Shown here: piece after piece, positions 1,389-58,568 of the stretch
How the letters are laid out: each line of letters begins with the position of its first letter
Position numbering within the stretch: the stretch's first letter is position 1
IMG/VR virus record: IMGVR_UViG_3300029544_000210
Location: 84,406 to 143,881 of that record
Length of the DNA stretch: 59,476 nt
Strand: one strand, 5' to 3'
Origin: a virus
Taxonomy: Duplodnaviria; Heunggongvirae; Uroviricota; Caudoviricetes
Position numbers and translations under genes: made by a program
Notes under the pieces: model-generated
Database searches by the model: none
What the model was told of the DNA's origin: nothing
Seen by the model: the letters and a program-made list of their open reading frames with translations, nothing else

Positions 1389-1706
1389 TTATTTTTTTAC
1401 AAGTTCCATTTTATAACCAAGTGCATCAATAATTTTCACAAATAAAACTAATGATGGACTATGTGTTTTCTTTTCAAACCGTGAGATACTTTGCTGTTTG
1501 CTTTCCGTTAAATCGGCTAATTCCTTTTGAGAAATATTAGACTCTTTCCGTAATTTAACAACATTATCAATTAAGTTGTTCTCTATATCCTCTGCACGAA
1601 AAGTAGTGGCTGGTAAACCACTTACTTCTCGAACTGCAATTTGCTTTTGGTCGATTGCAACAGCTTCTAATAACCCTTGCATTGTATCATCAAAAAATTT
1701 GCTCAT
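1389..1706 (-). CDS. higA: HigA-like HTH (XRE) antitoxin
   Basis: MSKFFDDTMQGLLEAVA N-terminus plus HTH_3 (LRKESNISQKELADL...QQSISRFE), directly downstream of a RelE-type toxin. Confidence 0.75.
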   Translation of the reverse strand: MSKFFDDTMQGLLEAVAIDQKQIAVREVSGLPATTFRAEDIENNLIDNVVKLRKESNISQKELADLTESKQQSISRFEKKTHSPSLVLFVKIIDALGYKMELVKK

Positions 1707-1708
1707 GA

Positions 1709-2044
1709 TTATTCCTCCTTTAAAATTTTTACTACTGCCTTTAGAGCTTTCTTTTCATCAGGTGTTAAGTCTGCCTTTTCATCTTTTGAGTAGACATTGA
1801 CAAGATATACAGTTTCTTTTATATCAACATCTACATAAATTACTCTTGCACCACTTCGTTTCCCTTTTCCTTTATTCTCCATTGGGATACGGATTTTTCT
1901 TAATCCACCTGTATGAGAAATAGTATCTCCTAATTTCGGATTTTCTAATAAAATTTCTTGTAAGTCTTTTAAATTTTTATCAGTTAATCCTAAATCTTGC
2001 CATTTAGCGGTAAAAATTGGTGTTTCAATAAAGGTTCGTGTCAT
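1709..2044 (-). CDS. higB: RelE/HigB-family toxin
   Basis: MTRTFIETPIF...NPKLGDTISHTGGLRKIRI...GKRSGARVIY...YSKDEKADL is the typical HigB-2/RelE signature; start moved to ATG 2044 after AAGGAG. Confidence 0.85.
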   Translation of the reverse strand: MTRTFIETPIFTAKWQDLGLTDKNLKDLQEILLENPKLGDTISHTGGLRKIRIPMENKGKGKRSGARVIYVDVDIKETVYLVNVYSKDEKADLTPDEKKALKAVVKILKEE

Positions 2045-2074
2045 ATTTTTATTTTCTCCTTTGTTTATACACCT

Positions 2075-2104
2075 ATAATACATCAAATTTGTTGTATTTG
2101 TCAA
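2075..2104 (-). promoter_or_regulatory. sigmaA promoter of the TA operon with overlapping palindromic operator
   Basis: TTGACA-18-TATTAT; imperfect palindrome AATACAACAAATTTGATGTATT spans the spacer and -10. Confidence 0.6.
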
Positions 2105-18661: not shown

Positions 18662-18688
18662 ATTATGTTACGAAGGAGATGTTACAAA

Positions 18689-19585
18689 ATGCCTAAAAAG
18701 AAAACACATGAAGAATTTATTGAAGAATATTCAAAATTAAATATGCCAGTGGAAATATTAGGGTCTTATACTGGTTCAAAAAATAAAATACTATGTATGT
18801 GTAAAATATGTGGACAAACTTTTGAAACCACTCCATCATATTTACTAATGGGACGCATTCATAAACCTTGTGCAATAAGACAAGCAAGAGGAAAAACTGA
18901 TGCTCAATTTAAAAGAGAATTTGATAACGAAGATATAATAGTAGATGGCACATATACAGGTGCGTTAAATCCAATAGATGTTCATTGTAGAATATGTGGA
19001 TATAAATGGAGTCCAATCGCTTCAAGTATATTACATGGGCATGGTTGTCCTGTATGTAAAAAAACATATCATTATACAACTGAAGAATTTATTGAAAAAG
19101 TAAATACTTGTCCGTATGGAGAAGATTACAAAGTTTTGTCGGAATATACAAAATCTTCTAATAAAATTCTATTTCTACATAAAAAATGTAATAATTCTTT
19201 TAAAATGATTGCAAATAATTTTTTGCGTGGTCAAAGATGCCCATTTTGTAATGAATCAAAAGGCGAACAAAAAATTAGACAATTGCTTTATAATAACAAT
19301 ATAGATTATATACCACAACAGAATTATGACAATTTGTTAGGTGTTAATAACGGCTTATTATCATATGATTTTTATTTGCCTCAATACAATCTTTTAATTG
19401 AATATCAAGGTGAATTCCATGACGGCAAAGCAAGAATACAAAGTAAAAAGAAATATCAAATCCAACAAGAACATGATATGCGAAAACGTAAGTATGCCAA
19501 AAAACATAATATTCAATTGTTGGAAATTTGGTATTGGGATTATGAAAATATAGAAGAAATATTAAAAAAGGAGCTAAATTTATGA
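18689..19585 (+). CDS. free-standing zinc-ribbon repeat / Vsr-like (DUF559-type) homing endonuclease
   Basis: Repeated CxxCG..W/F...GCPxC modules, then ESKGE...YDFYLP...LIEYQGEFH...HD..K..YA...LLEIWYWD. Confidence 0.75.
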   Translation: MPKKKTHEEFIEEYSKLNMPVEILGSYTGSKNKILCMCKICGQTFETTPSYLLMGRIHKPCAIRQARGKTDAQFKREFDNEDIIVDGTYTGALNPIDVHCRICGYKWSPIASSILHGHGCPVCKKTYHYTTEEFIEKVNTCPYGEDYKVLSEYTKSSNKILFLHKKCNNSFKMIANNFLRGQRCPFCNESKGEQKIRQLLYNNNIDYIPQQNYDNLLGVNNGLLSYDFYLPQYNLLIEYQGEFHDGKARIQSKKKYQIQQEHDMRKRKYAKKHNIQLLEIWYWDYENIEEILKKELNL

Positions 19586-24487: not shown

Positions 24488-24587
24488 ACAATCCCGATGA
24501 AGCTTTCATCTAACCCTTGACAAATTCAAAAATATGCATTCTTAAAACAAAAGAATAAATAAATACAACAACTTATCTATAGGTAGA

Positions 24588-24960
24588 AAATGGTTCTCTA
24601 CACACTCTTCGGAGTATCTGAGATGATGGATACACCGCCCATCATAGATAAGTTAAATAAGCTGCTCACATCCAAAAGAAGTGAGGGCGGTCTATCAATC
24701 CGTTGATAGATTTTTACAAGTGAGCTGTCACTGACCGATATGTGACATAAATATAAAGGTCGGTTTGCGAAATTATTGACCTTTGGAATGGTCTAAAACT
24801 TCCCACTGCTACTGCTTATTGGCGGTGTTATGGAGAGGTCTTGCCTTAGTAGACGATTAACATATTTTGGCATTTACTATTCATATAGCATTGTAAGTCC
24901 TAAAACGGTCAATATCAACCATAGAAGTGATCGTGCTTCTCTGCGTTAATGAGAACCATT
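24588..24960 (+). ncRNA. putative ~370-nt structured RNA of unknown class
   Basis: Closing helix AATGGTTCTC/GAGAACCATT, at least 6 internal helices and a possible H-type pseudoknot. Confidence 0.5.
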
Positions 24961-44495: not shown

Positions 44496-47435
44496 ATGGC
44501 TAATTCAGATATTATTAAGATTGGTTTTGATTATAGAGCTAGTCTTGCACAATTTGAAAAGGAAACAAATGGTGTATTCGATGGTATTAGTAATAAAGCT
44601 GGTAAACAAAAAATCACAATTCAATTAGATGCAAAAGATGATAAAGTAATTGATAAAATTAAGGAATTGCAGAAACTCAAATTAGACAAGTTCACATTCG
44701 AGTTTGGTAATTCTGGATTAAAAGAACAGCTACAGACATTTGATAAATTAGAGAATAAGATTAATGAGATTATTAGTTTATCAAAAGGAATTGACTTATC
44801 ATTTAATACCAAAAATAAGACAGATGCTTATAACCAGTTAAAAAAATATGCAGATGCTTTTAAAGACTATTATGGTAATGAAGAAGCAATGGCTACCAAT
44901 GCAGGTGCAAAGGCTGGTTATGCGTACTACAAAGCCTATGAAGAAGCATTGCGAAAAGGTGTCGCACAAAGTAAATTAGAAAAAGTAACTATTGATTTTG
45001 ATGTAAACGATTCATTTTTCAGTAAAGAGAGAATCGTAGGAAATAGAATTAAAGACTTTGAAAATTTTCAAAAGTATGGTAATGCAGATGAAAGTAATTT
45101 AATTGCAGAAATCACATCACTAGAGAATCGGCTTTTGAAATTTAATTCTGCTTATTCTAAAGTGAAGGCTAATTTAGGCGATGCGCCAATTACACCTGAA
45201 ATCACAAAAAACATTGAAGAATATGTTAGGATGTTAGAAGTTGCAGAAAGCAGAGCAAAAGATGCAGAATTATTTGGATATTCAAGCGAAGATATCAATT
45301 CGGATAAAGACCTTGCAAATATGTATCTTGACTTTGCAAAAGAAGATGCTATTGCCGAAAATAAAAAATATATTGAATCATTAAAACAAGAAGAGACACA
45401 GGCTATTGCTACTGCTGAAGCAGAACAGAAATTAGCAGAAGCTCAAAAGGAAACAGTTTCTAATACTTCTAATTCAAATAATTCTCAAATTGAAGAGTTA
45501 AAATCTGATATTCAAGAGGTAAAAACTGAACTTGGTGATGTAAAAGATAGAATTTCTTCTATTGAATCGAATGGTTTTGAAAATGTACGAGATGATGTTG
45601 AAAAGACAAAGGAATCTGTAAAAGAACTTAACAGTGAATTTGCAGAAATGAAATCCAACCTCTCCTCTACTCCACAAGAATCGAATATTTCATCTGGAAA
45701 TACAAACCCACCTAATCCACCTAAAAAGGATAGATACGCAAAACGAAGGAAAATATCTGAAGAAGATTTCTTAAATTACTCTCCTAATAGAATTAATGAA
45801 AAATTATCAAATTCTGGATATACAATTCTTGGTGAAACTGTAAACACAGAGCTTGTTGATGGTCTTGTAAAGGTAAGTGCAAAAATAAAAGATGCTGATG
45901 GCGCATGGAAATCGTTTTCCGCAAAAGTCGATGCTGATGGTAATATTTTTGAACAGCGTTTTAAGACTGTAACAAATGGTGTAGATAAATTAGAAACGGC
46001 ATTACAGAATTTTGGTCGTGAAACTGCTCCTGCTCTTACATATCAAGAAACCTTAGATAAGGCTCAGAAAATCAAGAATAGTTTAAATCTTGGTGATGAG
46101 TATTCTATCAAGGTTGATAGTAGTGAATTTGTAACCATTACTAAAAAGTTGACAGATGTTGAGAACGCAGGTTCTTCTGTTACTCAGACCTTTAAATCTG
46201 CACAAGATGCCATTGATAACTTTGGTAAAGCTACATCTAATTCTGCCGAAAAAACAAGCGTTGCGTTAAAGAGTGTCAAAAGTAATGTCAAAGAAGTAGT
46301 TGATGAAACCGAAAAACTTGCAAACGCTCAAAAAGAACAGAATGCCAATGTAAACCTTAATAAATATGATAAACAGTTAGATTCTTACAATGGTAAGGTT
46401 GATAAATATCAAGCCACTATTGCAAGGTTTAATGATGGTGGTTGGACAAGTGATACATATTTAAAAAATGTGCAAGCTGTACATGATGCGGTTAAACAGT
46501 ACGCAACTCTTCTGGACAATATAAAGACTAATCAAAATGGTATCGCTAGTGATGAGGATATTCAGAACTTAGATAAGTATGAAAAGAAAATAAAAGATAC
46601 TATCGCTACTGTTACTAATATGTCGGCTTCTGAGAAGGGATATAACTTTGTATCGGCTCAGAAAGAATTAGACAAGATTCACAAGCTTCTCAATGAAAAT
46701 AGTAAAATGTCTTCTGAAGCAAAAGCTAAGATTAAATCTTACTATGCAGAAATTGAAAGTGGTAATCCTAGCATGAGTTTGGATAGAATTCATGGCGAAA
46801 TCATGAAGATTTATAATGCTGAAGTCGAAGCTGGTCGTGCTGGTAAAAGTTTCTTTGACACTTTAAAGAATAGCGGATTCCATCAGATTGCTGCTCAGAT
46901 GGCAGGAATGTTTGGTGTTTATGATGTTATTAATGGATTGAAACAGGTTGCTTCTACTGTTAGAGAATTAGATACTGCATATACCGAAATGCGTAAAGTG
47001 TCAAATGAATCTGCACAGTCATTAAAGAATTTTCAGAAAGAAAGTTTTTCTACCGCTGACTCGGTTGGTACTACTGCTCTCGCATTACAGGATGCCACAG
47101 CAACATGGATGCGTCTTGGTGAGTCATTAGATGAAGCCAAGGAATCGGCAAAAGATGCAACAGTTTTATTAAATGTATCAGAATTTGAAAATATTGATGA
47201 AGCAACGGATTCATTAGTTGCAATGTCACAAGCTTATAAAGAGCTTGACAAAATGGAAATTATTGATGTCCTGGATAAAATCGGCAACGAGTATAGTATC
47301 AGTACCAATGAACTTTCAACAGCATTGAAAGATTCGGCTGCTGTATTAAAAACTCAAGGCAACGATCTTGCTGAAAGTGTAGCTCTTATTACTGCTGGTA
47401 ATGCCATAACACAGGACGTTTCTAAAACCGCAGGT
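44496..47435 (+). CDS. tape measure protein, exon 1 (980 codons)
   Basis: TP901-type core ELDTAYTEMRKVS...WMRLG...GNEYSIST...ITAGNAITQDVSKTAG stops mid-domain at a group I 5' splice site. Confidence 0.85.
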
Positions 47436-47854
47436 GAAACATTGCCTGAAAGATATAGAAATATATTTTATAGAACATATTTAACTGCAAGGGCAGCCTA
47501 AAGCTCTATGCCACAATATAGAGGAAACTACTATATGATGGATTCAAAAATTAGAGATATTACAATGGCTTGTTTGCAACGAAGTACCCTAACGTATCCC
47601 GTAGACCATACGGTACTTGAGTCGAGGGTAAACGCTCAACGATCATTCTCCGATGAGGAGATTCAGACTTGTGAATAAAGGTGGAAATCCTGAATATCTG
47701 AATCATAAGAAGTACGGCTTAATCGCAAATGAAGTCGGTGAGAACCCGTCAAATGGAAAAGGTATGTTCCCTAATGCATAGCAAGGGAATAAGACATGAT
47801 CTGTTACTCTTCCGAAAGGTAGAGAGATACTATTATACATGAGGAATAAAAGGA

Positions 47855-48022
47855 ATGAAGAAATTCGATAAGGAGTATTCAACTCAATTTTCTCCTGAAA
47901 AGGAGTATTTATTACAACATGGTATTAAACCATCTTTTGTAAAAGAAATAAATGAAGTAACTACATATAAGTATACGAAAACGTCAGAGTTATTTAAACT
48001 ACTGGCGATTTTTTATGCGTAA
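47855..48022 (+). CDS. intron-encoded small protein (55 aa)
   Basis: MKKFDKEYSTQFSPEKEYLLQHGIKPSFVKEINEVTTYKYTKTSELF; GAGG/AAGG RBS. Confidence 0.55.
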   Translation: MKKFDKEYSTQFSPEKEYLLQHGIKPSFVKEINEVTTYKYTKTSELFKLLAIFYA

Positions 48023-48045
48023 AATTAGAAAGGAACAGATAATAT

Positions 48046-49617
48046 ATGGGTGATAGTAAATTGAAATATACAACAGAATATTTAAAAGAATTATGTAATG
48101 AAAAAGATTTAATTTTAGTTGGAATAGATAATAAAGAAGTAAACGGTAAAAATAGACGTTGTGCTTGTATTTTATGTAATAAACATAAAGAAAAAGGAGT
48201 ACAATGGATTCCTGTTGAAAAAATAGGTAAGAATAAAAAGCCATGTCAATATTGTAATCATTCAAAATTAAAAGAGACATTTAAAGAGGAAATGACTATT
48301 ATAAATCCAGATATTGAAATATTATCTGAGTATAAGAATTGGAACACAAAGGTAAAATGTAAATGTAAGGTATGTGGTCACATATGGGATGGCACTGTTT
48401 CATGTTTATTATATGGTAATGGATGTAAGATATGCGGACATGTAAAACGATGGGATTCGAGAGGTAGAAAAACAACCCAAGATATCATAAATGAAGTTTT
48501 AGAAGTATCCCCTGAAATTGAAGTGTTAGGTGAATATACAGGAAGTAATAATAAAATTTTATGCCGTTGTAAAAAACATGATACAAAATGGAAAATTCAA
48601 ATACATACATTATTAAAAGGTGCTACCAATTGTGAAGAATGCCAATTAGAGAAAGCCAGAGAAAAGTTTGGGTTAAACAAGGAAGATGTGTATGCAAAAA
48701 TCAATGAGATAAATCCTAATATTAATATATTGTCTGAATATATAAATATTAAAGAAAAAATGAAGTTTTATTGTAAAAAACATAATTATGAATTTGAAGC
48801 AGCTCCTTCTTCTTTTCTATATAAAGAATCGTTATGTTGTCCAATGTGTATGTATGAAAATGATAGATGCACAAAATTAATTGATGATGATTTATATAAA
48901 TATTATGTAGAAGATGTTCATGGGTATATTTATAAAGATAGAGAAGTTGTCAATGGGCATACAGTAATATCTTTCTTGTGTAAAAATCATATTGATAAAG
49001 GTATCCAAAAAGTACCATTTCATAATATAAAATCTTCAAAATGTTGTTGTAGATATTGTAACGGATATTTTAGAACTACAGATGAATTTAAAGAAATTAT
49101 AAAAGAGAAATTACCAAATATTGAAATTACAGGCGAATACACATTAGCTGGTGAACGAATTGAATGCAGATGTAGAACTTGTGGACATGAATGGACACCG
49201 CTTGCATATAACTTGATGACTGGATTTGGTTGTCCAAATTGCAATGCTTCCAATTCTGAAAACAATGTAGGAAAAATATTGGATAAATTTCAGCTTAAAT
49301 ATGAACGTCAAAAAAGATTTGATGATTGCAAGGATATAAATACTCTTCCATTTGATTTTTATCTTAATGACTATAATGTTGCCATAGAATACGATGGTGA
49401 ACAACACTATATGCCTGTTAATTGGAATGGTAAAATGTCAGACGAAGAACTAAATAGAGCATTTGAATTAGTTCAATCCCACGACAAAATAAAAACTGAA
49501 TATTGTAAAGAACAAAACATTCAATTAATTCGTATTCCATATTGGGAAAAGAATAATATTGAATGTTTTTTATTTGATAACTTATTAGACTTAAATATAT
49601 TACAAGAAGTATCATAA
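48046..49617 (+). CDS. intron-encoded zinc-ribbon repeat / Vsr-like homing endonuclease
   Basis: Multiple CxxH/CxxC repeats; C-terminal SNSE...LPFDFYL...IEYDGEQHY...HDKIK..YC...LIRIPYW. Confidence 0.8.
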   Translation: MGDSKLKYTTEYLKELCNEKDLILVGIDNKEVNGKNRRCACILCNKHKEKGVQWIPVEKIGKNKKPCQYCNHSKLKETFKEEMTIINPDIEILSEYKNWNTKVKCKCKVCGHIWDGTVSCLLYGNGCKICGHVKRWDSRGRKTTQDIINEVLEVSPEIEVLGEYTGSNNKILCRCKKHDTKWKIQIHTLLKGATNCEECQLEKAREKFGLNKEDVYAKINEINPNINILSEYINIKEKMKFYCKKHNYEFEAAPSSFLYKESLCCPMCMYENDRCTKLIDDDLYKYYVEDVHGYIYKDREVVNGHTVISFLCKNHIDKGIQKVPFHNIKSSKCCCRYCNGYFRTTDEFKEIIKEKLPNIEITGEYTLAGERIECRCRTCGHEWTPLAYNLMTGFGCPNCNASNSENNVGKILDKFQLKYERQKRFDDCKDINTLPFDFYLNDYNVAIEYDGEQHYMPVNWNGKMSDEELNRAFELVQSHDKIKTEYCKEQNIQLIRIPYWEKNNIECFLFDNLLDLNILQEVS

Positions 49618-49676
49618 AAAAGAGAATAATATAATAGTATCTGATACAAGAGTTGCGACTTGTATCAAACATAAAG

Positions 49677-50315
49677 GGTGTTCGTACAATTAGTCTGCGA
49701 CTCGCAGGAACTGAAGAAGCGAAAGATGAATTAGCTTCTTTAGGCGAAGATGTAGATGATTTTGTTGTACAAACCAGTTCAAAAACACAGCAAATAATCA
49801 AAGATTATACTGCTGTTGCGTCTAATGCATATCAAGGTGTAGATGTTTTAGATGCTAACGGAAATCTCCGTAATACATATGATATCCTTTTAGACATCGC
49901 CAAGGTCTATAAAGAGATTCAAGAAGAAGATAAAAAGGCTGGAACAAACCGAGCAAATGCTTTAGTAGAGGCTATTGCAGGTAAGAACAGATCCAACATT
50001 GCTTCTAGTATCCTGCTCAACCCAGAAATGTTAGAGTCTGTGTACAATTCTGCACTTGACGCAGACGGAGCGGCAATGAAGGAACTTGACTCTTACATGG
50101 AATCTCTTGATGCCAAGGTAGCACAATTCCAGAATAGACTTCAAGAACTTGAGTCTGACTTGGTAAGCTCTGATTTTCTGAAGGGTATAGTTGATTTTGG
50201 TACAGGAGCAATCCATGTACTAGATCAACTTATTGACAAATTTGGTGTATTACCAACTGTTATCGGTATCGGTGGTGCTGGTACAGGTATCTTTAAATTT
50301 ATTAAGAATTTTGAT
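49677..50315 (+). CDS. tape measure protein, exon 2 (213 codons)
   Basis: GVRTISLRLAG...LRNTYDILLDIA...IAGKNRSN...FIKNFD; no own start; bounded by two splice sites. Confidence 0.85.
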
Positions 50316-50907
50316 TGGGTTTTCAAACCTTATATAAAAACTCTCTCCAACAGTTTTTAGTTGGTCAATCATAGATAAGAGAATAACATAATGGCGTTAC
50401 AATCAAATCTATGGATACATGGGATTCTTAATAAAAACTCTGCAAACACTTTAGCGGAGTATAAACTATTACATGGAGGAGTAAATGCTTGAATGCTTGG
50501 TAGCTTAACAAACTACCCACGGATCACATAACAAACCGTAATCCATATGGTTATATTGGATGAGGTTGCGAAAGCAGAAAAAATTGTATATGTGGATATA
50601 TGAAAATATCGAGGAGACTTGATAGGTGTCTAAGTATCATTAATAACGGGCAACGAGCAGGACGGTACTCTACATTTTTAATGTTGACCATATATAGAAA
50701 TGAAAGGTCATATATAGAGAATAACTATATAAGAGAGCAATCCCCAACGACATACCCATCCTCTAAGTGAGTCATCGCCTTAAGTATGACATTCGCTTAT
50801 AATGCATAGTGTACATTGCGATTTCGGAATTCAGTAATGTATTTGAGTGTGTGTTTAACTCAACTAGAAAATTCCAAAAAATAACTTAAAATTTTTAGTT
50901 CAGAGTA

Positions 50908-50936
50908 TTGACAACTAACTTGCGACATTATATAAT
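50908..50936 (+). promoter_or_regulatory. consensus sigmaA promoter inside intron 2
   Basis: TTGACA-17-TATAAT upstream of 50964 ORF. Confidence 0.8.
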
Positions 50937-50963
50937 TAGACTTGTAATAAAGGAGGTATATAG

Positions 50964-51152
50964 ATGTCAGATGTTAGAGAAGTCTATGTTACTGCCGAGG
51001 TTGCAAAAATATTAGACATTACACCTGCTTATCTTATTAGATTGGCTAAAAATCTTAATCTTAATGAAAGTCAATTTAGAGAAGCTGGAAAACGTAATTA
51101 TCTTTTTAGCAAAGAATCGGTAGAATTAATTAAAGGAAATTTAAAAAGATAA
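50964..51152 (+). CDS. small MerR/excisionase-like HTH protein (intron cargo)
   Basis: VYVTAEVAKILDITPAYLIRLAK...RNYLFSKESVE; AAGGAGGT RBS. Confidence 0.7.
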   Translation: MSDVREVYVTAEVAKILDITPAYLIRLAKNLNLNESQFREAGKRNYLFSKESVELIKGNLKR

Positions 51153-51262
51153 AAGACATCCATCGCTCCGACCAAAGAACAAATGGATGTCTTACATATG
51201 AGATTTCTCTCAATTTCTATTCTACTATACTTTCAAAATTTTATCAAATAAATTTTGGAGGA

Positions 51263-52048
51263 ATGCTTATGAATGAATTAAATTTCATTAAACGATTTGA
51301 AACTATTGATGTGGAATGTTTTAATTTTAATGGTAAAGCATTATTTAATCCATATCACGTTGGAAAATGTTTGGAAATTAGCGACAGTAATGTAAGAAAT
51401 TATCTCGCTAAAATGAACGAAAATCAGGCGGTTATATTAAAAAATTCAGAAGTCCGTAATATGGACTTCCGAAAATTAAATAATCGTGGTGAAAAATTCA
51501 TTACAAAAAGCGGAGTATATAAACTTATTTTTAAGTCACAAACGGATAAGGCAGAAAAATTTCAAGATTGGGTTACTGACGAAGTGTTGCCTTCTATTGA
51601 AATGACTGGTGGTTATATTCCTATTAAAGAAGATGAACCAGATGAATTAATAATGGCAAGAGCTGTCCAGATTGCTAATGAAACAATCAAACACAAAGAT
51701 GAAATTATTGCTAATCAGAAAAAGAGAATTGCATCATTAGAAGAAACTGAAAAAGATTGGAAACTTCTAATGGATACCAAAGGCACTTTTTCGATAAACG
51801 AGATTGCACATTTTATAGGAATTGGCGAATATAGACTCTTCTCTTATATGAGAAATATTGGATTACTTTTCAAGAATGAAAACGGAGACAATGTTCCATA
51901 TGAAAATGTAGTAAATAAAACTAAATTTATATCTGTTCCTGCTATTGCACCTGATGGAACTGCTCATATACAAACACGAGTTAAACCTGAAGGCATCTCT
52001 TACATAACAAAGCTACTTCGTAAATATGGATATTTGGAGGTGGCATAA
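51263..52048 (+). CDS. BRO-N / KilAC phage antirepressor (intron cargo)
   Basis: FITKSGVYKLIFKS...AEKFQDWVTDEVLPSIEMTGGY; C-terminal ANT/KilAC QTRVKPEG. Confidence 0.85.
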   Translation: MLMNELNFIKRFETIDVECFNFNGKALFNPYHVGKCLEISDSNVRNYLAKMNENQAVILKNSEVRNMDFRKLNNRGEKFITKSGVYKLIFKSQTDKAEKFQDWVTDEVLPSIEMTGGYIPIKEDEPDELIMARAVQIANETIKHKDEIIANQKKRIASLEETEKDWKLLMDTKGTFSINEIAHFIGIGEYRLFSYMRNIGLLFKNENGDNVPYENVVNKTKFISVPAIAPDGTAHIQTRVKPEGISYITKLLRKYGYLEVA

Positions 52049-52221
52049 TGAAATACATAAAGCTTATAGCATTAAAAGTTAATGACTTCTCTTCTACTAT
52101 TTTCTTTGAAAATAATTATAAATTAAGTGATAAGGAAATATTAGAAGTTGATAAGAAATGTTGTGAAAATGACGGATGCACTTGTGTTATATTACATATA
52201 AATAGTAACATTCAAGCATAA
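52048..52221 (+). CDS. small hypothetical protein (intron cargo)
   Basis: MKYIKLIALKVNDFSSTIFFE...; TAATG coupling and GGAGGTG RBS. Confidence 0.5.
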   Translation: MKYIKLIALKVNDFSSTIFFENNYKLSDKEILEVDKKCCENDGCTCVILHINSNIQA

Positions 52222-52307
52222 TTCGCAACAGAGAATAACAAAATAGGACTGTCGTGAGACAGCCCTACTGATGAAATAAAGGAGAATAAATATATAAATG
52301 AAGAACA

Positions 52308-52493
52308 TTAATGATGAAGATTGATATTGATATCCTTAGAAGTCATTTCTGCTAAACTTCCAGTTTTGGAATCACTGTAGTCTTTGCAGATTTTTGCAAT
52401 GTAACATTTGCCAACGATTGAAGCTATGTGGCATATTACATAACATATTCCAAGAATTATTGAACCGATTATCTCGGCATATAATATATTCAA
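52308..52493 (-). CDS. small membrane protein (intron cargo, antisense)
   Basis: IIGSIILGICYVICHIASIVG TM; GGGAGGTG RBS. Confidence 0.6.
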   Translation of the reverse strand: MNILYAEIIGSIILGICYVICHIASIVGKCYIAKICKDYSDSKTGSLAEMTSKDININLHH

Positions 52494-52710
52494 TATGTAT
52501 TTTCACCTCCCTTCTTAGTAAGAATATAAATAAGTAGGGAATATTCTTTTAGCCCAGAATGGGCAGATATTTATTCCGAATGCCACAAAAATAGACATTG
52601 GGACAACCTTCGGTTATAGAGTGTTATGGCACACATCTATGTTGTTTCTCCAATGTCTATATTTTACCATTGTACAAAACTAAATACAATCCAGAACAGC
52701 AGTTTGTATT

Positions 52711-52887
52711 TTATAAAACAATGTGTTTCGATATATATTCTTTTCTTTCAACTTCATTCATTGAGAAGAATTCTTCAAAATCAATATCGAGTTTTATGCA
52801 ATTACAATTGCATACTCGGCATACATTTGTAAGATAATGTGTATATGTAACTCTGTGACAATTTGGACAATAATGAATTTTTAGCAT
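52711..52887 (-). CDS. small zinc-ribbon protein (intron cargo, antisense)
   Basis: MLKIHYCPNCHRV...CRVCN...; AAGAG RBS. Confidence 0.5.
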   Translation of the reverse strand: MLKIHYCPNCHRVTYTHYLTNVCRVCNCNCIKLDIDFEEFFSMNEVERKEYISKHIVL

Positions 52888-52962
52888 AATTGACTACTCT
52901 TTTATTATATCTATTTATTTGGACGGAATAACCTAAATTATTATGATGTGAGGTATAAAATA

Positions 52963-53103
52963 ATGACAAATTTAAATATTAAAATTAAAATCAACGAATT
53001 AGAGGAATTAAAACCAGCTATTGAATATATAAAGGCTCTTGATCTTAATAAAATACCCGAACTCAATACAGAAGTGATAATTGAATTCGGGTATGGTAAT
53101 TAA
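52963..53103 (+). CDS. small hypothetical protein (intron cargo)
   Basis: MTNLNIKIKINELEELKPAIEYIK...; GAGGT RBS. Confidence 0.5.
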   Translation: MTNLNIKIKINELEELKPAIEYIKALDLNKIPELNTEVIIEFGYGN

Positions 53104-53327
53104 TTTTCTTTTACCACTTCTATAACTGAAATTTCTGACCTAGCGATGGTAAATGCATTATTCTCAGAATATAAATGTAAATCATATCCCGTAGAGTATT
53201 GATGATTGAATATTTCATCACCTTCAAGAGTATGTTCGGATATACCCTTATGTCCATAATATACTTTTTTGATATGTTCATACTCTTGAACTTTACCATC
53301 TTTGTTTTTAATTTTAAATGTGTACAT
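53100..53327 (-). CDS. hypothetical protein (intron cargo, antisense)
   Basis: ORF track; GGAGGAG RBS. Confidence 0.65.
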   Translation of the reverse strand: MYTFKIKNKDGKVQEYEHIKKVYYGHKGISEHTLEGDEIFNHQYSTGYDLHLYSENNAFTIARSEISVIEVVKEN

Positions 53328-53408
53328 TGTGATACTCCTCCGTAATTTGATAACACCATCATACTACTTTGAGGAATATTTTACCATTCGGAACATTAGT
53401 TCCCATTC

Positions 53409-53819
53409 TTAAAAATCACTCTTACAATTATTACAGTGCCATTGTTTTTTAACCTTTTGTGAGAATATACCGAACATTGCTACTGATGTCGCTTTTGATA
53501 CTCCTGATATTTTCTTACAATTTGTTGAATTACAATATGGACAATGAACCTTGTTTAATAACTCCTGTGCTTGTGCGTTGGCTTGGGCGATTTGCTGTGG
53601 GGTAAGGTCGGGAATCGCAGGATTGTTTTCTTTAGTTCCATATTGTTTACTTAATTCACACCATAGTTGTTGAGCATCGTCATCTGAACAATTTGTTAAT
53701 TCTTGAATAAACTTCATTCCTTTTAATGTTTGATTTTGAGCAATTATCATCAACATTTTTGTTGCTTCCGTGCTTTCAATTTGATTATCAAAATAATATT
53801 TTGCTTCTTCGTAATTCAT
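53409..53819 (-). CDS. protein with C-terminal zinc ribbon and hydrophobic hairpin (intron cargo, antisense)
   Basis: VHCPYCNSTNCKKIS...AMFGIFS...WHCNNCKSDF; AAGGGG RBS; TGATATAAT -10 just inside the 3' splice site. Confidence 0.7.
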   Translation of the reverse strand: MNYEEAKYYFDNQIESTEATKMLMIIAQNQTLKGMKFIQELTNCSDDDAQQLWCELSKQYGTKENNPAIPDLTPQQIAQANAQAQELLNKVHCPYCNSTNCKKISGVSKATSVAMFGIFSQKVKKQWHCNNCKSDF

Positions 53820-53867
53820 AATAAACCCCTTTTTTGTTTTTATTATATCAGACAACACATAAATACG

Positions 53868-56800
53868 CAATTAAAGACTGTTGGAGAGTCTGTTAGCGTT
53901 ATATCAAAACTTGAAGAAGCTTTAAAAGAAATAGACAATATTGGTACTGTTGGTATGCCTAGAATGGCACAGGTAAACAGATTGTTAAAAGAAACTTTTG
54001 CTGACTGTTCCATTGAAGCTGCAAAAATGGCAATTTCGCAAAGTACATTAAATAAAGAGCAAATAGAATTGATTTTATCCTCAAAAGGTCTTACAGGTAA
54101 TATTCTTGAAACTACTACTGCTGAACTTGCTAATACTACTGCTACTAATGCTATGGCTGCGACTGAGGGTACTGCTACTACTGCCACTGTTGGATTTGGT
54201 ACGGCTATCAAAGGTCTTGGTGCATCATTAAAAGCACTTGCAGTTGCACATCCGATATTACTTGCTATAACAGTAACTTTAGGTGCTATTGCAGGAGCAG
54301 TTAAGATAGTAGATGCGTTAACAACATCTATGAAAAAACAGCGTGAAGCATTTGAAAATGCACAACAGGACTATACGGATGCTTGTACAAAGCTTGATGA
54401 GTTAAAAAATAAGCTATCAGAGACTACAAGTAGAATAGCTGAATTAATCGAAAAGTCTAATAATGGTACTATTACATTAGTAGAACAGGCTGAACTTGAT
54501 AAGTTGAAACTTACTAATGAAGAGTTAAGACTTATGATACAGAACCAGGAAGAGGTTAAAAAGCAGAAAGCAAAAGAAGCCTCTGACGAAGCATATAAAA
54601 CATACACAAGAGAAAATCGCATGGAAACTGACGATACTGCTAGTAAACAGGAACAGTATTATCAAGCATCAAGTGATGCAGATGGTTTCCACGTTGGTTC
54701 ATTCTTGGATAGAGCGAGTGAATTATCTGATTTTGATTATGCTATTAAAGCTAATGAACAGAAATTAGAGGAATTCCAGAAACAGAATGAAGAATTACAG
54801 GCACAATTAAATGCTACTTCTGATGAAAGTCTTAAAGCTCAATACCAACATAGTATTGACCTCAATAACAATCTTATATCTAATTATACAAATTCCAATG
54901 AAAAGTTAAAAGAATCTGCTGAAAAGATGGCAGAGGAAACCTTCTCAGATAAGATAGAGAAGTATGAAGCATTCAAGCAGACATTGATGAATTCTATGAA
55001 TTCTGATGGTACATTTGACAATCCACAATATCAAGCTATGTGGGATGATATGCAGAAGAAGGAAATGGACTTATACCGATATACTGGTAGGTCTGCTGAA
55101 TGGAATACAGTTAAACTAGATTCTATTATAGATGATAAAAGTTATCAGGCAATAGTTGATAAGCTTAAAACAGCACTTAATGAAGGTACTCTTACTGAGG
55201 ATGATATTAAGGGGATTGATGTTCTTAATGATAAGCTGAATGATACTGATTTAATCTTAGAAGATGGACAATCAGCAGCAGATGTATTTATTAAGTATCT
55301 TAATAAGCTTAAAGAAACTGGAACTGATGCTGCACAATCTATATCTGGTGCATTTACTGACTTAACTTCTCTTCTCACAGAATCAGATGATAAGTCACAA
55401 ACAGCCAATCTTGCAGACCTTCAATCAGAAGCAGACCTATTATCTACAATCCAAAAAGAATTAGATGATAATGGACGTATAGGTGTATCATCTATGCAAA
55501 GCATTATCAAGAAATATCCAGAAGCAAAGGCAGCACTTTCGGATTATATGCAAGGCATAATATCTGAACAAGAGTTATTTTCACAGCTTGAAACTGTCTA
55601 TGAGAATGACAAAAATCAGTACATACAATCTGTAGTAGATAAGTCACAGACTGATGAAGAATTCTTCAATGCAGTTATGACTAATTACCCAGAGTTATAT
55701 AATGAACTTTCTAGTTTGTATGGCAATGACGTTGATAACTGGTCAAATATGGAACAGGCTAAGCTGGAAATTACCAATAAAGCTATTAAGGAATTAGCAG
55801 GTGTCTGGTCTGACTATTTCAAAGTTGTTCAGGATGCAAATGGTAAATTGATGGTACAGACAACTGGCTGGTATGATGCAGGTATGTATTCGGCAGATCC
55901 AGATGAAGTAGAAGCTATGGATGAAGAATACAACAATATGTACAACCATTTCCAAAGTATTGTTGATGGTGCTAATGCTGCGGTAGATGCTTTAGATAAT
56001 TATAGCTTTAAACAGGTTAGTTCAAGTATCAACCTTGATTGGAAAGGATTGGGTAAAGATTCCTCATCTTCATCTAGTGGAAGTGATTCATCTTCATCAT
56101 CTGAGCCATCGCCACAGGACTTCAACTGGGTAGAACGTCTCTTATCCAAAATTTCCAAAGCATATGACCGTTTAAAGAATAAAGTATCTGATACAACACG
56201 TACATGGCTTAATCGTAATAATGCCCTCTCCGATTCAATGGAAACATTGTTATCAGAGATTAACGCACAATCAGATGCTTATGATTTTTATATGGATAGA
56301 TTTAATTCATATGACTTAAGCGATTATTACAAAGATCAGATTGCAAATGGCTCATTTAATATAGAAATTATTTATGATGATGACCTTAAAGATGCAATTT
56401 CAGATTGCCAGGATTTATATGATAAGGCTCAAGATGCTGCTGATGCTGTACAATCATTAAACATAGAGATAAGACAGCTTGCTAAGAGTAGATTTGATAA
56501 TATTCAATCACAGTTTGAAGAAGTTCTTGGGAAAGTAAATTCTATTAAGGATTTATATAGCAAGGATAATGACCTCTTAGAAGAACAGGGCTGGTTTGCT
56601 TCTACTCTGCTTAATAATTCTATGATTGAACAAGAACAGAAGAATCTTGAAAAGCTTGAACAGGAAAGAGATGCACTTACAAAGGCACTTAATTCTGCTA
56701 TGGCATCTGGTAAAATTGAAGCTGAATCTGAGGATTGGTATTCTATGCAGTCTGCCATAGATGATTGTACTTCAAGTATATATGATGCTAAAAAGGCATT

Positions 56801-58568
56801 AGTTGAGTATGATAATGCTATCAGACAGATTAATTGGGATGCTTTCGATAGGACTAGAGATGATGTCAGTAACCTTATAGACGAAACTCAGTTCCTTGTT
56901 GACTTACTAAAGGATGAAGATATTACTGATGATAATGGTAATATGAATGACAATGGTAAGGCTGCACAAGCATTAATTGCACAGAAGTATCAATTATATC
57001 TTAATCAGGCTAAAGCTTATAAGGATGAGATACTTAAGATTAATGAAGAGTTAGCTAATGATCCTTATGATAAGGAGTTGCTTGATAGAAAACAGGAACT
57101 TATTAATGCTCAACAGGAGGCTATTAATTCAAGTATATCTGAAAAGGATGCCCTTAAGGACTTGGTTCAAGAGGGCTATGATACATTTCTTGATAAGCTT
57201 GATGAAGTTATACAAAAGTACAAAGATCTTATGAATCAGCAAAAGGATGCTTATGATTATGAGAAATCTATAGCTGAGAAAACAAAAGCTCTTAACGCTT
57301 TAGAAAAACAATACTCTGCCGTTCAAGGAGATAATTCTGAGGAAGGTAAGAAGAATATCCAGCAGCTTAAAGATCAGATTAATACTGCCAAAGATGATTT
57401 GAAAGATACTGAGTATGAAAAGCTTATAAGCGATACTCAAGCTATCCTTGATAATCTTGCCGATACTACAAAAACGTGGCTTGATGAGCGACTTGATTCA
57501 TTTGATATAACTATGCAGGAAATTATTGACCAGTCTAATGAAAATGCTTCTAATATCTCACAGACTATCACTGATACTGCTGAGAACTATGGTTATAAGC
57601 TTAGTGAATCTATGTCAAATATATGGAGTACAAACGCTAGTAATATAACAAATGGTATTAATAGTGTATTAGGTGACTTCAGTAACAAGTTTGTTGAAGG
57701 CAACAACGCTATTAATAAGGTTTGTGGTGACATTAATGCTGCTGTACAAGGTTTATTGAAGAATAGTAATGATGAAGCACAAAGAGTTGCTGATGAGATT
57801 GCTAGACAGCAGGCAGAACAGAATGCTAATACCGATGGTGGTTATTCTGATGGCGGTAGTTCGTCTGGTGGTGATGATTGGTCTGATAATTGGGATAACT
57901 CTGATAGTGGCTCATCTGATGATGGTGGTGGCTCTTGGGGTGATTGGTTCTATCATTTGGAAGACGATTATCCGAAGGACTTACTTGAAATTGATACAAG
58001 TATTGTAGACCGTTTAAAATATAATGATATAGACAGTTCATTTGGTGCAAGAGCTGATTACTACTCTGCTATGGGTGGTGACGGAGAATATTATGGTAGT
58101 TCAGATCAGAATATTTGGATGTTAGACCAGCTCAAATCTCATGGCTATAAAAATGGTACTAAATCAGCAATAGCAGGTATACACCGCACAGATGAGCAAG
58201 GTCTTGGTTCAGAAGTTATCTTCTCTAAGAAATATGGTACTCTTCGTAAATTAGATGCTGGCGATATGGTATTTAATGCAGACCAAGTTGAAAAGCTTTG
58301 GAATCTTTCTAAGGGTATTACTGCTCCAAATATGTATATGGATAATTTGGGTGCTAAGTTACCAGATATTCCTAATATATCGAATAACTTGGCTAATAAG
58401 GTTGATGTAGAATTTGGAGATGTCACATTATCATTACCAAATGTTCACAATTATGAAGACTTTATGAAACAAGCACAACAAGATCCTAAATTTGAAAAGA
58501 TGGTTCAGAATATGACTCTTGGACAGACTTTAGGTAGAAATTCACTTAGTAAACTGACCTTTAGATAA
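53868..58568 (+). CDS. tape measure protein, exon 3 (1566 aa)
   Basis: Coiled-coil with TM segment, DFNWVER, HGYKNGTK...DEQGLGSEV tape-measure C-terminus; no credible RBS/start, begins after intron terminal G. Confidence 0.85.
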   Translation, partial: QLKTVGESVSVISKLEEALKEIDNIGTVGMPRMAQVNRLLKETFADCSIEAAKMAISQSTLNKEQIELILSSKGLTGNILETTTAELANTTATNAMAATEGTATTATVGFGTAIKGLGASLKALAVAHPILLAITVTLGAIAGAVKIVDALTTSMKKQREAFENAQQDYTDACTKLDELKNKLSETTSRIAELIEKSNNGTITLVEQAELDKLKLTNEELRLMIQNQEEVKKQKAKEASDEAYKTYTRENRMETDDTASKQEQYYQASSDADGFHVGSFLDRASELSDFDYAIKANEQKLEEFQKQNEELQAQLNATSDESLKAQYQHSIDLNNNLISNYTNSNEKLKESAEKMAEETFSDKIEKYEAFKQTLMNSMNSDGTFDNPQYQAMWDDMQKKEMDLYRYTGRSAEWNTVKLDSIIDDKSYQAIVDKLKTALNEGTLTEDDIKGIDVLNDKLNDTDLILEDGQSAADVFIKYLNKLKETGTDAAQSISGAFTDLTSLLTESDDKSQTANLADLQSEADLLSTIQKELDDNGRIGVSSMQSIIKKYPEAKAALSDYMQGIISEQELFSQLETVYENDKNQYIQSVVDKSQTDEEFFNAVMTNYPELYNELSSLYGNDVDNWSNMEQAKLEITNKAIKELAGVWSDYFKVVQDANGKLMVQTTGWYDAGMYSADPDEVEAMDEEYNNMYNHFQSIVDGANAAVDALDNYSFKQVSSSINLDWKGLGKDSSSSSSGSDSSSSSEPSPQDFNWVERLLSKISKAYDRLKNKVSDTTRTWLNRNNALSDSMETLLSEINAQSDAYDFYMDRFNSYDLSDYYKDQIANGSFNIEIIYDDDLKDAISDCQDLYDKAQDAADAVQSLNIEIRQLAKSRFDNIQSQFEEVLGKVNSIKDLYSKDNDLLEEQGWFASTLLNNSMIEQEQKNLEKLEQERDALTKALNSAMASGKIEAESEDWYSMQSAIDDCTSSIYDAKKALVEYDNAIRQINWDAFDRTRDDVSNLIDETQFLVDLLKDEDITDDNGNMNDNGKAAQALIAQKYQLYLNQAKAYKDEILKINEELANDPYDKELLDRKQELINAQQEAINSSISEKDALKDLVQEGYDTFLDKLDEVIQKYKDLMNQQKDAYDYEKSIAEKTKALNALEKQYSAVQGDNSEEGKKNIQQLKDQINTAKDDLKDTEYEKLISDTQAILDNLADTTKTWLDERLDSFDITMQEIIDQSNENASNISQTITDTAENYGYKLSESMSNIWSTNASNITNGINSVLGDFSNKFVEGNNAINKVCGDINAAVQGLLKNSNDEAQRVADEIARQQAEQNANTDGGYSDGGSSSGGDDWSDNWDNSDSGSSDDGGGSWGDWFYHLEDDYPKDLLEIDTSIVDRLKYNDIDSSFGARADYYSAMGGDGEYYGSSDQNIWMLDQLKSHGYKNGTKSAIAGIHRTDEQGLGSEVIFSKKYGTLRKLDAGDMVFNADQVEKLWNLSKGITAPNMYMDNLGAKLPDIPNISNNLANKVDVEFGDVTLSLPNVHNYEDFMKQAQQDPKFEKMVQNMTLGQTLGRNSLSKLTFR

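Follow-up and report, generated by a model that had tools for sequence, protein, structure and literature searches.

Organization of the tape-measure locus

The DNA analysed here (the window) is a stretch of 59,476 nucleotides (nt) from a virus of the Caudoviricetes, positions 84,406 to 143,881 of IMG/VR record IMGVR_UViG_3300029544_000210, and its tape-measure gene is split into three pieces by two inserts. The second insert, a group I-type element here called intron 2, carries about 3 kb of accessory genes (cargo) and is the main subject of this report. The source record comprises 154,808 nt, is of the provirus class and is 94% complete. The gene order of the window (terminase, portal, capsid, tail tube, tape measure) resembles that of large temperate siphophages of Bacillota, and this gut prophage is presumably similar to SPbeta. 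Exons and inserts are arranged as follows, in window coordinates.

44496..47435, plus strand: tape-measure exon 1, 980 codons; matches PF10145 and phrog_4211 positions 559-774; boundary placed by the P1/P10 search
47436..49676, plus strand: intron 1, group I intron of the ordinary kind; P7 canonical, P10 of 6 base pairs (bp)
49677..50315, plus strand: tape-measure exon 2, 213 codons; phrog_4211 positions 775-953; 5' strand of P1 made up of its final five bases
50316..53867, plus strand: intron 2, group I-type, 3,552 nt; preceded by U, final base G
53868..58568, plus strand: tape-measure exon 3, 1,566 codons; phrog_4211 positions 956-1557, the match starting about 78 residues in

An earlier note, made from the sequence of this DNA, held that the tape-measure frame stops at 50315 and resumes in frame at 53868, and both the frame and the open reading frame (ORF) analysis bear this out. 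The frame ending in ...FIKNFD at 50315 closes after a further 14 codons, QLKTVGE resumes at 53868 in the same frame, and the phrog_4211 profile continues from position 953 to 956 across the 3.55-kb insert. Ligated exons would yield a single tape-measure protein of about 2,759 amino acids (aa). When joined in silico, the window segment aligns over the junction with six of eight intronless proteins at 23-32% identity, which lends weak support to colinearity with the intronless tape-measure family. The possibility that exon 3 is translated from its own start, which the note had named as a test, finds no conserved start to rest on: a ribosome-binding site near a start within the first 120 codons is present in 2 of 17 copies, and a stop codon lies immediately 5' of the 3' splice site in 3 of the 17.

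Predicted splice sites of intron 2

The strongest single item of evidence, absent from the earlier note, is a 21-bp P10 that directly adjoins a P1 closed by a U.G pair, so that the two helices together define both splice sites.

50343..50363, plus strand: P10 strand of 21 nt; matches the opening 21 nt of exon 3 (53868-53888) through 19 Watson-Crick and two G.U pairs
50364..50368, plus strand: internal guide, pairing with 50311-50315; G50364.U50315 at the 5' splice site

P10 has a unique partner in the 154.8-kb genome, where the runner-up reaches at most 16 of 21 Watson-Crick pairs, and the duplex is predicted at -29.8 kcal/mol versus -16.5 for the next transcript site. The stop codon that follows the 5' splice site (50358-60) is located inside the left arm of P10. 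That the insert follows a U and ends in G, as noted earlier, is correct, and it is the U50315.G50364 pair that closes P1. All five P1 pairs are kept in each of 10 aligned copies, with two pairs doubly changed and the U.G retained. For P10, both strands are rewritten in locus L393 with 21 of 21 pairs intact, while locus L394 has an entirely different P10, read by eye, of about 19 pairs and one bulge, in frame and preceded by G.

At the 3' end, the terminal G is found in all 28 complete copies, whose lengths range from 2,226 to 5,835 nt and all of which have an open frame following a strong P10; this set is what remains of 69 distinct rows after the removal of 41, namely L394, whose best site lay one base off register, and rows in which exon 3 was not reached. 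The last 30 intron bases of these 28 copies fall into about nine unrelated types with approximately 6% G, and no P9.0 is conserved. When P1 plus P10 were searched for without constraint on frame or G, 24 of 53 loci gave a site that is in frame and preceded by G; this count includes two apparently spurious sites, later dropped, and misses four family members with a mismatched P10.

An internal P10-like site at 50861 was ruled out as a splice site, as it is preceded by U and reaches -8.5 kcal/mol. The conserved 10-nt site at 50861-50871, where P9.1 ends, is able to base-pair with the P10 strand and could hold the guide in the excised intron. In one sibling family (L006, L008, L054, L059, L062), C.A replaces U.G at the 5' splice site.

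Ribozyme core and the unusual P7

The group I fold from P1 to P9.1 spans 50311-50863, which places the core in the first ~550 nt of intron 2.

50370..50863, plus strand: ribozyme core, with P2, P2.1 and P5 arms; P3 (50475-80/50759-64); P4 (50486-91/50654-59)
within 50370..50863, plus strand: 3' helices of the core, P6 (50660-62/50741-43), P8 (50765-98), P9 (50811-42), P9.1 (50843-63)
50747-54 and 50807-12, plus strand: P7 strands; four pairs conserved, an extra A in the 5' strand, G rather than C at position 311

The location of the core given in the earlier note stands, with P3, P4, P6, P8, P9 and P9.1 all present; the P7.1 it listed was not found, and P7 is non-canonical. P4-P5-P6 and P3-P8-P9 occur in canonical order and the P3 pseudoknot is present. 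RNAalifold recovered P4, the P5 arms, P6, P9 and P9.1 unprompted from 12 close copies. A 77-pair structure drawn from the window was scored on 10 copies, of which L152, L158, L393 and L394 are distant: 98.4% of 770 cells are paired and 22 of the 77 pairs are doubly changed. None of 500 shuffles scored as high and slid controls reached 34-45%; both controls leave relatedness in, and the four distant copies supply most of the double changes. Double changes occur in P1, P3, P5c, P8, P9 and P9.1, with none in P4 and P6, which vary little and are supported by pairing.

The register of P7 was set from locus L391, which shares a P4 variant with the intron 2 family and has a canonical P7, and from 16 hand-located sibling cores, all of which have a canonical P7 with G264-C311. 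The G264-C311 pair is where the terminal G binds in Tetrahymena (PMC10020454). Because this pair is missing, the intron 2 family is best described as a variant derived from group I introns rather than a canonical member. Copies that are only about 75-85% alike nevertheless have invariant R and S segments, and the terminal G is kept, so the guanosine site appears, from sequence comparison, to be rebuilt and yet working. No report of a natural loss of C311 was found in the literature covered, which leaves most subscription papers and supplements outside. A permuted core, with the 3' strand of P7 upstream in P5, was considered and rejected, since the segment is not kept in L393 and L394. Loci L007, L057 and L119 have an extra U after G264, a second type of P7 variant at the tape-measure site.

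Cargo genes

The ~3 kb that follow P9.1 contain eight ORFs on both strands, in agreement with the earlier count of about eight.

50908..50936, plus strand: sigma-A promoter ahead of the first cargo operon; 12/12 match, 17-nt spacer
50964..51152, plus strand: helix-turn-helix protein, excisionase/MerR-like, 62 aa; weak matches to HTH_17-like PF12728 (E 0.0015, below cut-off) and phrog_2655 (E 0.0014)
51263..52048, plus strand: BRO-N/KilAC antirepressor; PF02498 and PF03374 (ANT/KilAC) above cut-off; phrog_130
52048..52221, plus strand: 57-aa ORF, no family match
52242..52269, minus strand: predicted terminator-like hairpin for the antisense genes
52308..52493, minus strand: hydrophobic peptide, 61 aa, with a strong ribosome-binding site; recurs in relatives
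52711..52887, minus strand: Cys-rich zinc-ribbon-like ORF, 58 aa, no family match
52948..53103, plus strand: 51-aa ORF, no family match
53100..53327, minus strand: 75-aa ORF, no family match
53409..53819, minus strand: zinc-ribbon protein, 136 aa; C-terminal domain constant, N-terminus variable; the commonest cargo gene
53842..53870, minus strand: predicted antisense promoter of the zinc-ribbon gene; 9/12 match, -35 box overlapping the 3' splice site

Among the identities proposed in the earlier note, the BRO-KilAC antirepressor is above cut-off, the helix-turn-helix match is weak and the 58-aa Cys-rich ORF matches no family. Its claim that the cargo has its own promoters is upheld for the sigma-A promoter at 50908-50936; the other promoter-like matches in the window's intron are at chance level (21 vs 24 +/- 4.3 expected). 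As it also stated, none of the eight ORFs matches a homing endonuclease in Pfam, PHROGs, NCBIfam or PADLOC. No IS200/605 or IS607 transposase or TnpB was identified in the intron 2 cargo of the window, and PADLOC matches none of its eight ORFs (0/8).

Across 62 intron loci, 400 cargo ORFs group into 155 clusters, several of which are common to different intron families. Pfam matched 28 of 98 cargo representatives, including four MazF/PemK-like proteins, ToxN/AbiQ, GmrSD-N, TIR, NYN, three DUF3800 proteins, BRO and Rha, as well as one TnpB and one endonuclease-like DUF4379 protein. The CptN toxin is above its cut-off in the cargo of L394. Candidate defence proteins in the cargo of relatives comprise AbiQ/ToxN, TIR, DUF262, NYN, MazF-like and CptN. 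An antisense zinc-ribbon gene is situated near the 3' splice site in 46 of the 62 loci and is almost the sole cargo of the shortest introns. The encoded protein has 702 relatives, none with a tested function, and no named family was matched; the gene was not found in the intronless loci tested.

At L018:9194-10300, the sole TnpB of the 98 representatives lies directly 3' of the ribozyme core, an IStron-like layout within the intron 2 family. A skipping-rope RNA is present at window 24573-24651 and another copy of it in the cargo of L055 (L055:12762-12842).

The insertion site in relatives

The earlier note had suggested comparing related phages for a conserved core and splice sites with variable cargo, and this is the pattern that was found. 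The same ~600-nt core occurs in 27 of 39 first-search loci, 26 at 94.5-98% identity and one at 85%. Among the matches listed, 88 of 96 distinct IMG/VR contigs break within 40 codons of the site (one at a contig end), six run through, one runs through under code 15 and one is broken elsewhere; this sample was seeded with the window's exon, and the share is not a census. The 65 distinct 5' regions fall into 20 sequence clusters, that is, about 20 different intron families. All viral matches with the full core are at the same tape-measure site, and the window's genome has one copy. No DNA relative of the intron 2 core was found among GenBank phages, and a pattern scan of metagenomes, the pattern of which was too loose, gave just two true loci.

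Around the constant core, the identity of exon 2 (23-100%) and of the start of exon 3 (30-98%) varies independently, as in L001 (100% and 42%, respectively) and L115 (23% and 76%). Recombination in the core, or homing of the core, may explain this independent variation.

In L016/L050, an intronless tape-measure gene of 2,949 codons is open only with TAG read as sense (code 15). Several database alleles of exon 3 (P0128-P0135) stop about 150 residues in and have a common tail, suggesting an additional interruption of the gene in these relatives.

Proposed mechanism and alternative explanations

It is likely that intron 2 is a cis-spliced, group I-derived cargo intron whose 3' splice site is set by P10 and the terminal G and whose cargo is expressed from its own promoters. 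On the late tail transcript, pairing of the guide with the final five bases of exon 2 would place the U.G at the cut, and the 21-bp P10 would connect the same guide region to the first bases of exon 3. P10 and the terminal G would be the sole means of locating the 3' splice site. The sequence from P9.1 to that G would then be dispensable, so that genes can enter and leave there; the cargo itself is likely expressed in the lysogen from its own sigma-A promoters. The reading frame, pairings, covariation and cargo turnover are established features of the locus, on which we infer catalysis, the cis pathway, the timing of expression and a benefit. The proposal in the earlier note that the intron is a splice-out landing pad for accessory genes is supported, with two additions that it did not contain, namely the non-canonical guanosine site and the sense terminators of many copies.

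Several observations weigh against this reading. The G264-C311 pair cannot form in any of the 10 aligned copies, where position 311 is G in nine and A in one. Rfam, with gathering and E-value thresholds, gives no group I match for intron 2; the canonical intron 1 and those of eight sibling loci go undetected as well, so this blank is uninformative. Sense-strand terminator-like hairpins are present in 39 of 62 introns, and their predicted depletion failed to appear (50 sense vs 62 antisense); the window's intron 2 has no strong one. In 11 of 17 family rows, a count made without a shuffle control, the terminal G doubles as the C of the predicted antisense -35 box, to which the first exon bases also belong, and hence is not wholly independent evidence; in L033, L035 and L394, which lack the promoter overlap, it is still kept. 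Colinearity with intronless proteins is at just 23-32% identity and is driven by exon 2. A weak search returned 13 proteins, none of them spanning the junction, and four low-cover contig sets show no skipping joint, which is neutral as neither junction is covered. In view of the guanosine site and the sense terminators, simple read-through cis-splicing is a presumed pathway; the terminators could be reconciled with splicing by leaky termination, antitermination or trans-splicing.

Trans-splicing by the same ribozyme is quite unlikely. Here the RNA with exon 2 and the ribozyme would end at a cargo terminator, a second RNA started within the cargo would bring the terminal G and exon 3, and P10 would hold the two together. 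The entire core lies 5' of the cargo, and 39 of 62 loci have sense terminators. The length of P10 also fits, being 21 bp against nucleotides 2-8 in natural cis introns, and a stronger P10 aids engineered trans-splicers (PMC6155759); the P10 of intron 1, in the same gene, is only 6 bp. However, a strong sense terminator is missing from the window's copy, the number of sense promoters in the cargo is close to chance (48 vs 38 expected) and their position is not fixed, and no conserved sense promoter was found when one was looked for before exon 3. In addition, sibling families with a P10 of 7-16 bp have equally long cargo, and partial read-through may suffice for a low-copy protein. It is distinctly unlikely that the ribozyme is impaired, so that splicing depends on a protein helper (a host chaperone or the zinc-ribbon cargo protein) or on the active site of another intron. 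The change of C311 to G or A and the extra A of P7 in all aligned copies favour such an impairment, as do the location of the zinc-ribbon gene, which in 46 of 62 loci adjoins the 3' splice site, and its absence from the intronless loci tested; certain phage introns splice only in vivo (PMC11878797). The invariance of R and S across copies about 75-85% alike argues instead for a working core, and the zinc-ribbon gene is also present in canonical-P7 families and absent from others.

Two further explanations were considered. According to one, there is no splicing: an accessory island has split the tape measure into two genes and the intron core is a relic. Direct junction evidence is nil, P7 is non-canonical and the antisense promoter partly accounts for the terminal G, all of which such a relic would accommodate; nevertheless this account is very improbable, as exon 3 has neither a start codon nor a ribosome-binding site in conserved form (any at all in 2 of 17 copies), complementarity to the guide persists in its first 21 nt whereas identity in the remainder drops to 30%, P10 and P1 covary, and the G persists in the three loci without promoter overlap. 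According to the other, the 21-nt inverted repeat, whose two arms flank the cargo, is a DNA recombination site for inversion or excision of the island. This is scarcely credible: the pairing includes two G.U pairs, which are a feature of RNA, the stop codon at 50358-60 lies in the left arm, so that inversion would not restore the frame, IMG/VR gives no match (0) for an empty-site or spliced allele, and the genome has no serine recombinase.

Beyond the cis-spliced cargo intron, a broader and more tentative scheme, which we regard as unlikely in its full form, is a lineage-wide cargo-intron system with a rebuilt guanosine site, in which the 21-bp guide alone finds the 3' exon and joining in trans is possible, and which serves as a hub that reshuffles N- and C-terminal tape-measure alleles and defence cargo independently. 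Phage group I introns are described either as empty or as bearing a homing endonuclease. If splicing does occur, the accessory genes of a common group of gut prophages have a standing hotspot in an intron that interrupts an essential structural gene; this would offer a new place for mining defence genes and explain the piecemeal annotation of tape-measure genes. The family also provides a natural test of how, with kilobases in between and no P9.0, a 3' splice site is selected, and of the need for G264-C311. A ribozyme that tolerates an arbitrary insert of 5 kb and is aimed by a long guide would be of direct use in RNA engineering.

Comparison with known introns

Group I introns in prophage tape-measure genes, introns with ordinary genes and IStrons are already known. 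Group I introns have been divided into ORF-less and endonuclease-bearing ones (PMC3984707), and short group I introns have been reported (PMC12880540). Intron 2 does not qualify as a mobile group I intron with a homing endonuclease, because none of its eight cargo ORFs encodes one; intron 1 has such a gene. A close likeness exists to TMP-IVS1/2/3 of Bacillus cereus-group prophages (PMC2504315), which are also in-frame group I introns of the tape-measure gene, with a stop soon after the 5' splice site and different introns adapted to one site, and to the group I intron annotated in the tape-measure gene of phiCD211. These introns contain no ORF or one homing endonuclease, whereas intron 2 has a P10 of 21 bp, lacks a conserved 3' end and carries unrelated genes, encoded on both strands, over 3 kb. 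The introns of Bastillevirinae phages also interrupt essential genes of Bacillota phages, with a non-coding part of about 350 nt, a mean length of 802 +/- 342 nt and ORFs that are homing nucleases; the portion of PMC11878797 covered reports none in a tape-measure gene.

For introns that carry ordinary genes, the hexacoral mitochondrial ND5-717 (PMC6545197, PMC3073962) is an obligatory group I intron with 2 to 16 such genes in a peripheral arm, and it splices despite lacking the terminal G and departing from the canonical catalytic set (PMC6545197). Its cargo consists of fixed core mitochondrial genes in P8 that are inherited vertically, and giant forms back-splice; intron 2, by comparison, is a phage intron with variable accessory DNA after P9.1 that keeps the terminal G and has lost C311. 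The IStrons CdISt1 and BcISt1 (PMC4227781) are bacterial group I introns with protein genes past domain 9 and before the 3' splice site, and their cargo is an element of the IS200/605 or IS607 type, by which the unit is moved to many sites. Intron 2 has changing accessory cargo instead and is not an IStron, since its copy in the window has no transposase or TnpB and it occupies one fixed site with a single copy in the genome. The literature covered, with most subscription papers and supplementary intron tables outside, yielded no report of a phage group I intron with several accessory genes as cargo.

Phage morons and tail-region hotspots are self-promoted accessory or defence-like genes placed between the genes of the late operon. 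The cargo of intron 2 differs from them in lying inside an essential reading frame rather than between genes.

Intron 1 and other observations

The first insert has a coding content of the ordinary kind.

48046..49617, plus strand: homing endonuclease gene of intron 1, zinc-finger/endonuclease, 523 aa; phrog_559 (E 4.7e-85), phrog_9084, phrog_7140

Relatives are uninterrupted at the intron 1 site, and the phiCD211 record has an annotated group I intron at about this position. Exon 2 is 98-100% identical among relatives with three different second-intron families, as if it had been co-converted with intron 1. A free-standing zinc-finger/endonuclease-like ORF, which by eye is similar to the intron 1 gene, lies among tRNA genes at window 18665-19585. 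At window 1389-2104, a gene labelled by eye as RelE/HigB-like stands beside a helix-turn-helix gene, and the pair is likely a toxin-antitoxin system.

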